DNA from: a virus
Taxonomy: Duplodnaviria > Caudoviricetes
IMG/VR virus record: IMGVR_UViG_3300011226_000001
Location: 64,001-128,000 of that record
Strand: one strand, 5' to 3'
Length of the DNA: 64,000 nucleotides
Positions 30,007 through 43,123 of the stretch are shown here, piece after piece; within the stretch, counting starts at the first letter, position 1; every line of letters starts with the position of its first letter. The translations under genes were made by a program, and so were the position numbers. A model generated the notes under the pieces. The model searched no databases and was not told the origin of the DNA. It saw nothing but the letters and a program-made list of their open reading frames with translations.

Positions 30007-30270
30007 CTACCTCAGTTGGGAATCTTTGGAGCCACGACGATTGTAACCGACGTGCGCTGAACCGTCATGACTTGCCTGACAGTTAATGCAGTACCGCGCG
30101 TTCGGCATAGCGAGCTTGCGCATCACAGGAATCTTTGCACCGCAGTCAGGGTTGATGCAGTAATCAGAGCCTGCACCTTGAAGTTCTGAACGAGCACGGT
30201 CAATCTCGTTCATTACGTTTGTTTCGATGGTATCGTTAACGCCATCATCTTTTACGAAGCCTACAGCCAT
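30007..30270 (-). CDS. ybiI: DksA/TraR C4 zinc-finger protein, YbiI-like
   Basis: MAVGFVKDDGVND...CINPDCGAKIP..R..AMP.A.YCINCQ...GYNRRGSKDSQLR matches the enterobacterial YbiI pattern. Confidence 0.85.
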   Translation of the reverse strand: MAVGFVKDDGVNDTIETNVMNEIDRARSELQGAGSDYCINPDCGAKIPVMRKLAMPNARYCINCQASHDGSAHVGYNRRGSKDSQLR

Positions 30271-30271
30271 T

Positions 30272-30928
30272 TTATTTCTTTTCCTCTCGTTCTTCATCTT
30301 CTGCGGTCAAGCGACACGACAGACACATATATTCATCGTCTACATCAGGGTCACGCTCTGCACCACACTCGGAGCATTTACCCTCTTCAATAAGATCGAG
30401 CTTACGGTCAATCTCGTCACAGGCAGCTTGCTCCTGCATCAGTTCATCGACACTTTCCGCAAGAGAAACTTCCTCATAGCGTCCGATAGTTGCACCGAGA
30501 CCTGAACGCAATTTGCAATACTGCGCTGCACCATACGTCACAAACACGTCAACGCGGTTGTTGTCTGCGTCACGCACTTCAAATTGCAGCGGTTGATTGT
30601 GTCGCTTTGAGTGCGCTTCGGTGTATGCAATACGAATCGCTTTCATGCGAGAAGCACAGGCACGAACGTGTTGTTGCAGTTCGCGTATATCAGGATTACC
30701 GCGAATAAGCATACCAAGACGTTCCCACTCCTCAAACTTGCGTGTCGTATTGACGTTCATGCTGTCACGTCTACGCATAGCACCGATAGCAGTCTGAAAG
30801 TATTTTAGGTCTTTCAGCGTTTCCATACCTTCGAGTTGCAGTTGCTCACACAAATCGCCGTGATACTGCGGGTCATCTTTGCGACGATAGTATTTCTTGC
30901 GGTGTGTATCAGTAAACATGCGAGGCAT
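30272..30928 (-). CDS. hypothetical protein with C-terminal Cys4 ribbon
   Basis: CSEC...CLSC. Confidence 0.7.
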   Translation of the reverse strand: MPRMFTDTHRKKYYRRKDDPQYHGDLCEQLQLEGMETLKDLKYFQTAIGAMRRRDSMNVNTTRKFEEWERLGMLIRGNPDIRELQQHVRACASRMKAIRIAYTEAHSKRHNQPLQFEVRDADNNRVDVFVTYGAAQYCKLRSGLGATIGRYEEVSLAESVDELMQEQAACDEIDRKLDLIEEGKCSECGAERDPDVDDEYMCLSCRLTAEDEEREEKK

Positions 30929-31284
30929 TAGTCGATACTCCATGTGTTAGTTTTAGGCGGCTTGCGTCCGAACTTCTTTTCATACCAGACTGCGTGTTTG
31001 CGTTCGATCTTATCGAAGTGCAAACTTCCAACAACACTGCTGTTATCTAGAGGACCCATCGCAGCAAGCAGGTAGCTCTCGTAGGACCACATGCGAATAT
31101 AGCAAACGCCACCAACGATACCGAAGATGATACCTGTCCAGAACCACATGTCTTCTACAGCAGGTGCTGAACGTCCGTGCATGATCAGAATGGCAATCAA
31201 CATCACGCCAGTAACTGCAAGGCGTCTGCGCCACACGATAAGCCCGTAGTAGAACGGGCTGTCATAGTAATAGTTTTTACGCAT
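30928..31284 (-). CDS. membrane protein (2 TM)
   Basis: start re-called at MRKNYY; two hydrophobic helices. Confidence 0.65.
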   Translation of the reverse strand: MRKNYYYDSPFYYGLIVWRRRLAVTGVMLIAILIMHGRSAPAVEDMWFWTGIIFGIVGGVCYIRMWSYESYLLAAMGPLDNSSVVGSLHFDKIERKHAVWYEKKFGRKPPKTNTWSID

Positions 31285-31300
31285 TATTTCATTTTCCCTG

Positions 31301-32710
31301 TTAGCACATACCGCTACCGAAACCACAACGACCATTACCACCAACATAACCGCAACGCTGGGAGGTGTATTCACAACTATCAGGATAGCCTCTAGGTTCT
31401 TCTTTCTTCGCCTTCTTCACTTTCTTCGCTTTTACCTTCTTGGCTTTCACTTCTGGTACAGGCTCTTTGCGTGACCAGTCGAAGTACAGGTTGCCGTCCA
31501 TGTGGAATACCATTTCGGTGTATTCTTCTTCGTCTTCGTTCGGTTCGTATGAAGACGCTTTCAGATATGCGAAGCTGTTACCGAGGTCGGCGCTGCGATG
31601 CGTGAAGCAAGACGGACAACCAGTAGTAAACGTATCGTCGAAGCCGGGCATAGTCTCGTCGAAAAGGTCATCGTAGTAGCTGCCGTCAAAGATAGAATCA
31701 AACAGCTTGATCAGCTCAGGCTTCTTCTTCAACTTCTTCTCAGCCTCCATAACGTCACGCTGTGAGCCGCGTGTAGCGTTGCGCCACTCTTCATGCGCCA
31801 TGCCATACTTACGCAGTTCTTTGCTCAACTTCTTGTTGTCGTAGTCAACACGGAACACAACGTCGATCCACGGGTTTGCTTTCATCAGTTCGTTCGCCTG
31901 ACGGAACTCCCATTCGATGTTGTCGATGTTCTGTTTGTTGATAACGAAGTTGATATGGAAACTCAGCTTGCGACCTAACTGGCGGCGGAAGCGCACAAGG
32001 TCATCAAGAGTCCACGTATAGTTGACGCCCATGATCTTGTTTGCTTTCTCACGGTCAAATGAGTGCAGACTGATATTCAGATGCGACAGTTTGCTTTCCA
32101 GCATCACGTCTGTATTCAGATCGAGGAACGTCATCGTCTGATTATGCTTTTCAAGGAACTGACCGTTAGAAGTCAGACCCACTTTGTGCATACCAGCTTC
32201 TGCACGAATACGGTCAATCGTTTCGAACAGATACTTCATGCGAAGCGTAGGTTCACCCCCAGAGATTGAGATGTGGTCGACACGATGGCCGTGCGTTTTG
32301 ATTGCAGCCATCAGATTGTCTTGCCACTCTTTCTGCGGCGCTTTGTTTTCCATTTCTTTCTCAGGGCAGAAAGCACAATCAGCGTTACAGGTCACAGGCA
32401 GGATAGCAGTGAAGTTGCGCAGTTCGTTAGGGATCTCACGCTCTTTCTTTTTCTTCTTGCCGTACTTACCTGCTTCCCACTTGTCGAGAAGTGCAGACTG
32501 ATCGTGTTTGATAAGTTTCAAACACTCGGCGGGGTACCATGAAACACGACCATGATGTTTGACGTGCAGTGCGTACTCGTCTTTTTCATCCTGACGACCA
32601 ACGACGATTGCTTCTTCACCTGCACCATCAAAATGCTTCATGGTCACAGGCAGAACGTTGGAGATACGAACAAGGTCGGTCAGGCGGAAAGTGTGCTTAA
32701 TCTTTTTCAT
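31301..32710 (-). CDS. radical SAM enzyme with N-terminal SH3-like domain and C-terminal Cys/Gly-rich tail
   Basis: CNADCAFC (CxxxCxxC), ISGGEPT, LTSNG, LNISLHS; first gene after an early promoter. Confidence 0.88.
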   Translation of the reverse strand: MKKIKHTFRLTDLVRISNVLPVTMKHFDGAGEEAIVVGRQDEKDEYALHVKHHGRVSWYPAECLKLIKHDQSALLDKWEAGKYGKKKKKEREIPNELRNFTAILPVTCNADCAFCPEKEMENKAPQKEWQDNLMAAIKTHGHRVDHISISGGEPTLRMKYLFETIDRIRAEAGMHKVGLTSNGQFLEKHNQTMTFLDLNTDVMLESKLSHLNISLHSFDREKANKIMGVNYTWTLDDLVRFRRQLGRKLSFHINFVINKQNIDNIEWEFRQANELMKANPWIDVVFRVDYDNKKLSKELRKYGMAHEEWRNATRGSQRDVMEAEKKLKKKPELIKLFDSIFDGSYYDDLFDETMPGFDDTFTTGCPSCFTHRSADLGNSFAYLKASSYEPNEDEEEYTEMVFHMDGNLYFDWSRKEPVPEVKAKKVKAKKVKKAKKEEPRGYPDSCEYTSQRCGYVGGNGRCGFGSGMC

Positions 32711-32759
32711 ATACATATCCTCATGTAAGTAGCTAAACGAGTGTCTAGCGTTCATCTCT

Positions 32760-32812
32760 ATTATAGCATAAATCGAGCCAGTCTTGAATGGCTGTTTCGT
32801 CCAGAAATATGC
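32760..32812 (-). promoter_or_regulatory. phage early promoter
   Basis: CTGGACGAAA box, core 30 nt upstream of TATAAT (TATGC-extended). Confidence 0.75.
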
Positions 32813-33355
32813 TTAGTTAGAGTCCAGAAGTCGAATATAGCGAGAAGGTACGTGGTCAGTTAAGATGACCCCGTTCTCTGCTCGGTAGAACTTGTACCCG
32901 TGAGTAATCATTGCCTGGGTGTCGATCTCAAATACAACAGGCACACCGTGACGTTGACCAACGCGTTTCGCTGTTTCAATATCGTTGCTGATATGGACGT
33001 GCTTGCGTTTGCGTTTCAGGATTCCTTCGTGCATGATTGAAGCAATATTCTTTTCAGCGGTGCCGTGATACAAAGACGAACAATCAGTCCACGGTGCAAG
33101 ATTGAGAATGACGTGTTCGACAGAATGACCTTGAACACAACGAATCTTGGACTTGTTCGAGTTAAACTCAAAACGACCTTTATCGTCCGCTTCTACTTCT
33201 TCGATCAGCATCTCTCTGGTCACTTGCTTTTTGTACTTCGCTTTCTGCAAGAAATCCAGAACAGACACCCAGCCTTGGGTGTCCATTGCGATGCCAATGT
33301 CCTGAGGTTTATGACGCAGAATATACGTCATGTATACGCCCAGTGACTTTGCCAT
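32813..33355 (-). CDS. kptA: Tpt1/KptA family NAD+-dependent RNA 2'-phosphotransferase
   Basis: YILRH.P, GWV, DKGRFE, IRCVQGHS, LYHGT, KRKHVHIS, GQRHG, FYRAENGVILTDHVP. Confidence 0.93.
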   Translation of the reverse strand: MAKSLGVYMTYILRHKPQDIGIAMDTQGWVSVLDFLQKAKYKKQVTREMLIEEVEADDKGRFEFNSNKSKIRCVQGHSVEHVILNLAPWTDCSSLYHGTAEKNIASIMHEGILKRKRKHVHISNDIETAKRVGQRHGVPVVFEIDTQAMITHGYKFYRAENGVILTDHVPSRYIRLLDSN

Positions 33356-37951: not shown

Positions 37952-38008
37952 ATTATAACATAGGTCAGTCTCTGAATGAAACGGCTATTTTAGCCAGTTA
38001 TTTGCAGA
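37952..38008 (-). promoter_or_regulatory. phage early promoter
   Basis: GCAAATAACTGGCTAAAAT box, core 31 nt upstream of TATAAT (TATGT-extended). Confidence 0.75.
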
Positions 38009-41923: not shown

Positions 41924-41976
41924 ATAGTACGCCATTGAGCGCCTAAACTCAATGGCGATTTTGTCCAGATTTGTGC
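41924..41976 (-). promoter_or_regulatory. phage early promoter with perfect 10-bp inverted repeat in the spacer
   Basis: CTGGACAAAAT, TACTAT; CGCCATTGAG/CTCAATGGCG at 41930-41957. Confidence 0.7.
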
Positions 41977-43066: not shown

Positions 43067-43123
43067 ATTGTATCATAGGGCGCATATGCGTGTATATAGC
43101 TATTTTGTCCAGTTATTTGCAGA
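43067..43123 (-). promoter_or_regulatory. phage early promoter
   Basis: GCAAATAACTGGACAAAAT box, core 31 nt upstream of TACAAT (TATGA-extended). Confidence 0.8.

Follow-up and report, generated by a model that had tools for sequence, protein, structure and literature searches.

Radical SAM enzymes that mature ribosomal peptides are normally encoded in bacteria as genes separate from their substrates. In mycofactocin biosynthesis (and similarly for PqqA/PqqE), the enzyme acts on the last residues of a ribosomal peptide: MftA ends in IDGXCGVY, and MftC decarboxylates its C-terminal Tyr (PMC5264612). MftC has a SPASM domain and needs the chaperone MftB. The sactipeptide and ranthipeptide maturases (SkfB, CteB, SuiB, PapB) and anSME act on Cys-containing peptides, carry twitch or SPASM auxiliary clusters and usually an RRE, and their precursors are separate genes. 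In the bacterial, periplasmic, four-component HXS antiphage system, the radical SAM enzymes HxsB/HxsC mature HxsA, a protein with His-Xaa-Ser tripeptide repeats (PMC13128918). Enzyme and core peptide are joined in one polypeptide in the OphMA-type borosins, with the core at the C-terminus, but these are SAM-dependent N-methyltransferases and not radical SAM enzymes. Literature searches for a phage radical SAM enzyme with a Cys tail, or for a radical SAM enzyme fused to its own substrate, found no description of either.

Here, a gene of an Alexandravirus-type Erwinia jumbo phage was analyzed that appears to combine these elements in a different way. The analyzed window is a stretch of 64,000 nt (positions 64,001 to 128,000 of IMG/VR record IMGVR_UViG_3300011226_000001). 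The gene at 31301..32710 (-) encodes a protein of 469 aa plus the stop codon (P0001), and translation of 31304-32710 (-) confirmed every sequence feature of the original prediction, so that its observation holds. The N-terminal domain (aa 1-83, 32462..32710 (-)) is followed by a first Lys linker, GKKKKKE (aa 84-90, 32441..32461 (-)), and by the family core (aa 95-418, 31457..32428 (-)). The core contains the radical SAM cluster motif CNADCAFC (aa 108-115, 32366..32389 (-)), GGEP (aa 151-154) and CPSC (aa 365-368, 31607..31618 (-)), and comprises a partial TIM-barrel radical SAM domain and a family-specific C-terminal domain that ends in the motif HMDGxLYxDWSR. A second Lys-rich linker with K, A and V (aa 422-436, 31403..31447 (-)), predicted to be disordered, leads to the Cys tail (aa 441-469, 31304..31390 (-)) with C446-E-Y, C453-G-Y, C462-G-F and the terminal C469. 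ATG 32710 is the likely start codon, because a GAGGA Shine-Dalgarno motif lies 7 nt before it (32718..32722 (-)) and the orthologues, annotated with the same start in 15 phage records, begin with the same MKKIKH. The longer ORF from ATG 32755 begins only 5 nt after a perfect TATAAT and is therefore unlikely to be used.

Membership in the radical SAM superfamily was clear. Pfam PF04055 covers residues 106-265 with an E value of 7.9e-15 and 55.8 bits, compared to a gathering score of 29.5. The CxxxCxxC motif (C108, C112, C115) is invariant in 69 of 69 sequences, and G151-G152-E153 is also invariant. An AlphaFold2 model based on the 69-sequence alignment had a pLDDT above 90 across the core, and its fold matches to viperin, MoaA, GDGT-MAS and SuiB tied at Z values of about 17. 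The N-terminal domain was modeled with a pLDDT of 78 and is predicted to fold as a five-stranded SH3-like barrel, with a Mib repeat (Z 8.0) and KOW (Z 7.6) as best matches and Tudor and SH3 domains also listed (Z 6-8). A look-up of this domain in the ESM Atlas gave no usable hit. It is present only in the Erwinia/Dickeya/Yersinia phage clade and is absent from the family members P0025-P0065. The pLDDT dips to 56 in the first Lys linker.

In contrast, the enzyme did not fit any characterized family. The NCBIfam models for MoaA scored 49.9 (TIGR02666, cut-off 284) and 52.9 (NF001199, cut-off 231), those for viperin 49.6 (NF038283, prokaryotic, cut-off 180) and 29.1 (TIGR04278, cut-off 450), and that for QueE 17.9 (TIGR03963, cut-off 260.1), while phrog_2076 was matched with an E value of only 1.4e-5. 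The enzyme thus does not fall into MoaA, QueE or viperin, which the original prediction had named as a refuting outcome. The best NCBIfam match was HxsC (E 4e-16), yet its score of 58.6 is far below the cut-off of 267.9, and no Hxs partners were found among the neighbors, so that the enzyme is not an HxsC. The models of the sactipeptide and ranthipeptide group scored 17-29 bits against cut-offs of 300-650, and no MftC model appeared among the matches. It is thus very unlikely that the protein is an ordinary small-molecule enzyme with an incidental low-complexity tail, although MoaA and viperin are among the top structural matches and the RefSeq record of phage Y3 labels its orthologue 'GTP 3',8-cyclase'. 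MoaA uses three C-terminal Cys for an auxiliary [4Fe-4S] cluster and has a Gly-Gly C-terminus that takes part in catalysis, whereas only C365 and C368 are invariant here outside the SAM cluster and the protein ends in Cys. An hhalign comparison of the core profile with E. coli MoaA, performed to see whether the CxxC aligns with the auxiliary-cluster Cys, aligned only the generic N-terminal half (residues 9-133 of the core profile). In addition, no Moco or queuosine pathway genes lie nearby, and the tail is under selection across 184 family representatives.

Next, the distribution of the tail was analyzed. An exhaustive profile search yielded 163 sequence clusters at E<=1e-30, whereas no close relative turned up in 185,579 prokaryote species genomes. 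As far as this search can see, the family is confined to phages, many of them jumbo phages. Of 206 representatives with a complete core, 184 (89%) carry at least two Cys after the core, and in 156 of these 184 the last Cys lies within the last three residues. Two Cys were found in 81 and four Cys in 45 of the representatives, and the number varies from 2 to 10. The linkers comprise 26-339 residues. Tandem repeats occur (family member P0142), as do several modules spread over about 330 aa (P0191) and duplicated modules in Alexandra-like phages. In close relatives the four tail Cys and the aromatic positions are kept, while the residues between them change. Selection thus acts on the Cys positions, and in this clade on the aromatic positions, and the tail is not a chance feature. 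However, C-x-aromatic, which the original prediction had emphasized, is not the conserved essence. Across the family the constant is a Cys pair in a Gly/Ser context, usually followed by Gly (54% of the units) and spaced 5-9 residues apart at the extreme C-terminus, and the aromatic residue at +2 is a feature of this clade. About half of the close family ends in C-x-Y/F. A scan of the whole 268-kb genome for other proteins with such a tail found none among the real genes.

It had been proposed beforehand that the tail might occur elsewhere as a separate small ORF, and this turned out to be the case. Nine tail-less members were examined in their DNA context, and six of them have an adjacent small ORF with a coiled coil, a basic stretch and a Cys-pair module (L019 6011-6316, L021 5991-6230, L023 1-177, L106 3344-3580, L107 3334-3531 and L104 21-674, the L numbers denoting the DNA contexts). 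The three others showed no adjacent module. An enzyme gene beside a short peptide gene is the layout typical of maturase/precursor pairs. No recurrent partner gene other than the Cys-module ORF was found in the genomic context of distant members, and the system therefore looks self-contained.

Taken together, these results indicate that the enzyme most likely works on, or through, its own tail. The explanation we favor, although it is about as likely to be wrong as right, is that the flexibly tethered Cys-pair module serves as the enzyme's own substrate, as in RiPP or protein maturation. The interpretation given in the original prediction, an enzyme-substrate fusion, is thus partly supported. 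The architecture, its conservation across the family and its occurrence in split form were established by the analysis, whereas it is inferred that the tail is a substrate and is covalently modified, which chemistry is performed, and what the product would do during infection. In this view, the [4Fe-4S] cluster on C108/C112/C115 would reductively cleave SAM, and the 5'-deoxyadenosyl radical would abstract a hydrogen atom from a tail residue, likely next to a Cys (often Gly) or at or near the C-terminus. The resulting radical would be resolved with a tail thiol, giving a small ring (a thioether-type crosslink within a C-x5-9-C unit) or another change at the C-terminal Cys/aromatic end. The CxxC hairpin may hold the substrate thiols or a partial auxiliary cluster. 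The variable number of units is typical of multi-core substrates and not of a fixed cofactor ligand, and the action of MftC on a C-G-V-Y terminus is a precedent, although many tails of this family end in Cys rather than in an aromatic residue. The fold ties equally with peptide and protein maturases (SuiB, SkfB, CteB, anSME and EpeE, the maturase folds of the sactipeptide/ranthipeptide and anSME group at Z 14-17) and with small-molecule enzymes, and the best NCBIfam match, HxsC, is a maturase of a tripeptide-repeat protein.

Several results argue against this explanation. AlphaFold2 left the tail disordered (pLDDT 31-37, and below 50 throughout residues 436-469) and did not place it in the barrel. 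The enzyme lacks the multi-Cys SPASM/twitch domain that most thioether-forming peptide maturases have: no SPASM match in Pfam was obtained with the whole protein or with residues 285-425, searches with the C-terminal domain alone against PDB chains and Pfam yielded only chance-level hits, and this domain contains only one CxxC. Most such maturases also have an RRE. No Pfam hit to a PqqD-like recognition element was obtained, which does not exclude a divergent element, and the N-terminal domain is predicted to be an SH3-like barrel and not a winged helix. Furthermore, a substrate fused 1:1 to its enzyme implies a single turnover, which is unusual, and three of the nine tail-less members show no adjacent module.

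A paired-Cys tail on a flexible arm is also what a redox shuttle looks like, and a less likely alternative is that the enzyme acts on a nucleotide, a nucleic acid or another protein while the tail delivers reducing equivalents or hydrogen atoms to the active site, for example by re-reducing a C365/C368 disulfide or a thiyl radical. Class I/II ribonucleotide reductases have such a Cys pair a few residues apart on a disordered C-terminal arm. The prevalence of pairs, their spacing at the extreme C-terminus, and the CPSC at the tip of a predicted beta-hairpin, which resembles redox CxxC motifs and contains the only other invariant Cys of the protein, are in agreement with this possibility. So are the fold and profile similarity to viperin and MoaA, which act on nucleotides, and the KOW/Tudor-like domain and basic linkers of this clade, which could bind nucleic acid. 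However, the tails of ribonucleotide reductases are short, have exactly two Cys and are not known to occur as separate genes, whereas up to 10 Cys, repeated modules along linkers of 100-330 aa and separate coiled-coil mini-proteins would be odd for a shuttle, and the aromatic residue at +2 has no obvious role in it.

Somewhat less likely still is that the tail Cys, together with C365/C368, ligate an auxiliary Fe-S cluster or metal ion that the core cannot bind alone, an option that the original prediction had also named, or that they capture or deliver Fe-S to the enzyme in the infected cell. In its favor, the C-terminal domain has only two invariant Cys, compared to three in MoaA, and the tail supplies at least two more in most members. 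In sactipeptide synthases a substrate Cys binds the auxiliary cluster, and thus this role and the substrate role may overlap. The long and variable linkers and the varying Cys counts are unlike a structural ligand set, the ligands would sit on a separate mini-protein in the split forms, and the tail was not packed against the core in the AlphaFold2 model. The Cys spacings almost never include CxxC, CxC or CC, and a metallothionein or zinc-knuckle reading was set aside for the same reason.

It is very unlikely that the enzyme installs a stable glycyl-type radical on a C-G-Y/F unit of its own tail, as activases do on the RVxGY motif of glycyl radical enzymes, with the tail then serving as a radical cofactor. 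Units such as R-C-G-Y resemble the NrdD-type glycyl radical motif, and weak profile matches to the activases NrdG and PflA were found. Nevertheless, the +1 residue is often S, N, R or E, or is absent because the Cys is C-terminal, the tail is disordered whereas glycyl radicals are buried within a folded barrel, and no glycyl radical enzyme domain is present.

If the tail is the substrate, the family would be a compact one-gene system for finding new Cys-based protein chemistry, with natural split pairs available as controls, and it would show that phages make their own post-translationally crosslinked or cofactor-bearing proteins. A more far-reaching version, which remains possible but is tentative, is a widespread, phage-only class of self-contained systems that convert the C-terminal Cys pair into a previously unknown crosslink, or into a cofactor-like or released small product used during infection. 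This would be the first radical SAM enzyme-substrate fusion and a new type of protein modification made by viruses. If the tail is instead a redox arm or a cluster ligand, it defines a new way of servicing a radical SAM active site and leaves a large phage enzyme family with an unknown substrate. In either case the database labels 'GTP 3',8-cyclase' and 'hypothetical protein' are corrected.

The genomic surroundings were also inspected. The upstream neighbor at 32813..33355 (-) encodes the RNA 2'-phosphotransferase Tpt1/KptA (PF01885, E 7e-45), and the same neighbor is present in AD1, Y3 and fHe-Yen9-02. Downstream, at 30928..31284 (-), hydropathy analysis confirmed the predicted two-TM protein, which is syntenic with the enzyme gene across the Alexandra/Y3/Yersinia phage clade (tblastn), lies upstream of the enzyme in the SNUABM5-like phages, and was not found next to distant family members. 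Both genes are syntenic only within the Alexandra/Y3/Yersinia clade and count as one evolutionary observation. That the gene is the first of an early operon, as had been suggested, is plausible from sequence alone. A sigma-70-like promoter candidate lies at 32760..32788 (-), with TTCAAG (32783-32788), a 17-nt spacer and TATAAT (32760-32765). It was missed by a consensus scan because the -35 hexamer matches only 3 of 6 positions, and the generic sigma-70 scan revealed no excess of sites. Just upstream of it, at 32790..32804 (-), lies a 15-bp box, CTGGACGAAACAGCC, the pattern of which occurs 4 times in the window, compared to 0.26 occurrences expected by chance.

The minus strand of the window was found to contain an open frame of 469 codons at positions 31301-32710. 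The start codon, ATG at 32710, is preceded by a GAGGA motif with a spacer of 7 nt, and the annotated orthologues begin at the same position. A longer ORF would start at ATG 32755, but this codon lies 5 nt after a perfect TATAAT and is therefore probably inside or at the transcription start. Upstream of the gene lie a TTCAAG-17-TATAAT site and, just upstream of this site, a 15-bp box (CTGGMNAAAAYMGCY). The box occurs four times in the window, at 32790-32804 (the copy upstream of the radical SAM gene), 37983-37997, 41954-41968 and 43098-43112, all on the minus strand, whereas 0.26 occurrences would be expected by chance. It may be a phage early-promoter element or a regulator binding site. Given the TTCAAG-17-TATAAT site and the box, the gene may head a transcription unit. 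The window is 96% identical in DNA to the Erwinia phage pEa_SNUABM_17 (Alexandravirus, 264 kb).

Next, the anatomy of the protein was analyzed. Residues 1-83 were predicted to fold as a five-stranded SH3-like barrel followed by a helix, with a pLDDT of 78 for the domain model. The best structural matches were a Mib repeat (Z 8.0, 60 aligned residues, rmsd 1.7) and a KOW domain (Z 7.6), and Tudor and SH3 domains followed below. A Lys run (residues 84-90) leads into the radical SAM core, for which Pfam PF04055 yielded a score of 55.8 bits and which contains CxxxCxxC at residues 108-115 and GGE at residues 151-153. The core continues into a family-specific C-terminal domain, which has a predicted beta-hairpin with C365-P-S-C368 at its tip and ends in the conserved motif HMDGxLYxDWSR. 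The only invariant cysteines in the family are the three cluster ligands plus C365 and C368. After R414 the chain is predicted to be disordered, and it consists of a Lys/Ala/Val linker (residues 422-436) followed by a tail with C446-E-Y, C453-G-Y, C462-G-F and a C-terminal C469. Thus, the architecture described in the original prediction, i.e. a radical SAM enzyme with a fused Cys-x-aromatic tail, was confirmed.

To find out whether the tail could be due to chance, orthologues and more distant family members were compared. All 15 orthologues taken from phage records (Alexandravirus, Sasquatchvirus Y3, Rivsvirus, Snuvirus, Dickeya AD1 and Yersinia fHe-Yen9-02) end in a basic linker plus two to five C-x-Y/F units. 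The Cys and aromatic positions are retained, while the residues between them change. The orthologues of Alexandra, SNUABM2 and SNUABM22 (L010 1501-3096, L012 1501-3078 and L013 1501-2991, the stretches of phage DNA with these genes) carry two Cys modules separated by a second basic linker, which shows recent duplication of the module. A word-indexed search retrieved 70 clusters, and an exhaustive HMM search with a profile of the core, from which the tail was excluded, retrieved 163 clusters at E<=1e-30. Of 206 representatives with a complete core, 184 have at least two Cys after the core, and in 156 of these 184 the last Cys lies within the last three residues. The linker has a length of 26-339 residues, with a median of 62. 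The number of Cys ranges from 2 to 10 and is most often 2 or 4. Cys-Cys spacing is 5-9, with a mode of 7, and CxxC is nearly absent. The conserved essence is therefore a Cys pair in a Gly/Ser/Arg context at the end of a flexible arm. It seems possible, though unlikely, that this is an RNR-like dithiol arm that serves another, unidentified substrate. The residue after Cys is Gly in 54% of the units, but a glycyl-type radical carrier was regarded as very unlikely. The aromatic residue at +2, which had been part of the predicted unit, is particular to the clade of this window. In one subgroup (the representatives P0191, P0180, P0193 and P0196), several E-x-C-G-G...G-C-G pairs are spread along 100-330 residues of charged, partly repeated sequence, in some cases followed by an extra C-terminal region with no known domain. 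No other real gene in the 268-kb genome of this phage ends in this way. Taken together, the tail is a hallmark of the family and not a chance feature.

Sixteen representatives stop right after the core, and the DNA around nine of them was inspected for a separate small ORF encoding the tail, a test that had been proposed together with the original prediction. The result was positive. In six cases, a small neighboring ORF encodes an amphipathic or coiled-coil stretch, then a basic stretch, and then a Cys-pair module. In the following, L numbers denote the stretches of DNA around the respective enzyme genes. The ORFs are L019 6011-6316, which ends with SGCTRSTRCG, L021 5991-6230, which contains GGCRSGGCY and further units, L023 1-177, which ends with GTCGFTGC, L106 3344-3580, which ends with RCGLSINRCGLSIRCG, L107 3334-3531, which ends in four C-G units, and L104 21-674, in which the module ECGGGYSYGGCG is N-terminal. 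In the remaining three cases, L020, L105 and the 2-kb contig L022, no such ORF was found. In summary, enzyme and tail are two parts of one system, which are usually fused.

Assignment of the enzyme to a characterized family did not succeed. The curated models all scored far below their cut-offs, i.e. 58.6 bits versus a cut-off of 267.9 for HxsC, 49.9 versus 284 for MoaA, 49.6 versus 180 for prokaryotic viperin, and 17.9 versus 260 for QueE. A plain MoaA- or viperin-like enzyme was therefore considered the least likely of the alternatives. The RefSeq record of phage Y3 (NC_047880.1; L003 4001-5344) labels the orthologue 'GTP 3',8-cyclase MoaA', but in view of the low scores of the curated MoaA models on the protein of the window, this label is probably wrong. 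In a comparison with solved structures, viperin, GDGT-MAS, MoaA, SuiB and DesII tied at Z 16-17, and SkfB, CteB, anSME and EpeE followed at Z 14-15. Therefore, the fold does not separate small-molecule enzymes from peptide enzymes. An alignment with E. coli MoaA using hhalign covered only the N-terminal half. Sequence searches with the C-terminal domain and the tail yielded no Pfam or PDB match, and a SPASM or twitch Cys set is not present. A search of the literature did not reveal a paper describing the family.

The members of the family are located on contigs with phage hallmarks, such as a phiKZ-type protease and T4-type portal, protease and capsid genes, and many of these contigs have sizes of 250-330 kb. 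A scan of one genome for each of 185,579 prokaryote species, which relies on short sequence patterns and thus cannot prove absence, retrieved no close full-length relative, and the best matches were generic N-terminal hits with 24-28% identity.

The pattern best fits a maturase with its substrate on a leash. The features that point in this direction are a dedicated Cys-pair module that is fused or encoded next door, the plastic repeat number, the selection on the Cys positions, and the lack of any other conserved partner. In this view, SAM would be cleaved reductively at the C108/C112/C115 cluster, hydrogen would be abstracted in the tail, and resolution with a tail thiol would close a small ring or alter the C-terminal residue. 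C365 and C368 would position the thiols or hold a partial auxiliary cluster. There are precedents for radical SAM chemistry of this kind, as MftC acts on the IDGXCGVY end of MftA (PMC5264612) and HxsB/HxsC mature the HxS-repeat protein HxsA (PMC13128918). We regard this reading as about as likely as not. The architecture, its conservation and the existence of split forms were established by the sequence analyses, whereas the modification of the tail, the chemistry, and any role during infection are inferred. No experiment or model shows a modification, and the AF2 model leaves the tail disordered. It is also conceivable, though doubtful, that the tail Cys complete an auxiliary cluster together with the CxxC, and this alternative may overlap with the substrate model. 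The original interpretation, that the phage encodes a fusion of an enzyme with its own substrate, was thus partly supported.

The genes adjacent to the radical SAM gene differ between distant family members. An intact gene for the RNA 2'-phosphotransferase Tpt1/KptA (32813-33355, minus strand; Pfam E 7e-45) lies immediately upstream, and it keeps this position next to the radical SAM gene in Alexandravirus, Y3, AD1 and Yersinia fHe-Yen9-02. Because these phages are related, this counts as one evolutionary observation, and a functional link would be hypothetical. A two-TM protein (30928-31284, minus strand; 1437-1790 in the phage DNA stretch L014) stays within two genes of the radical SAM gene across the clade, but it lies on the other side, i.e. 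upstream, in the SNUABM5-like phages. Tpt1 and the two-TM protein accompany the gene only within the Alexandra/Y3/Yersinia clade, and the two-TM protein is absent next to distant family members. A DksA/TraR-type C4 zinc-finger protein (30007-30297, minus strand; Pfam E 6e-8) is encoded a few genes downstream and is also conserved in Y3, AD1 and fHe-Yen9-02. In a T4-like contig, a split pair, consisting of a 74-aa ORF and a tail-less radical SAM gene, is located between the prohead protease gene and the scaffold/major capsid genes, and in L104 the pair is located directly upstream of the tail sheath and tube genes. Therefore, in some phages the system lies in the structural module, in contrast to its early-looking position in the window.
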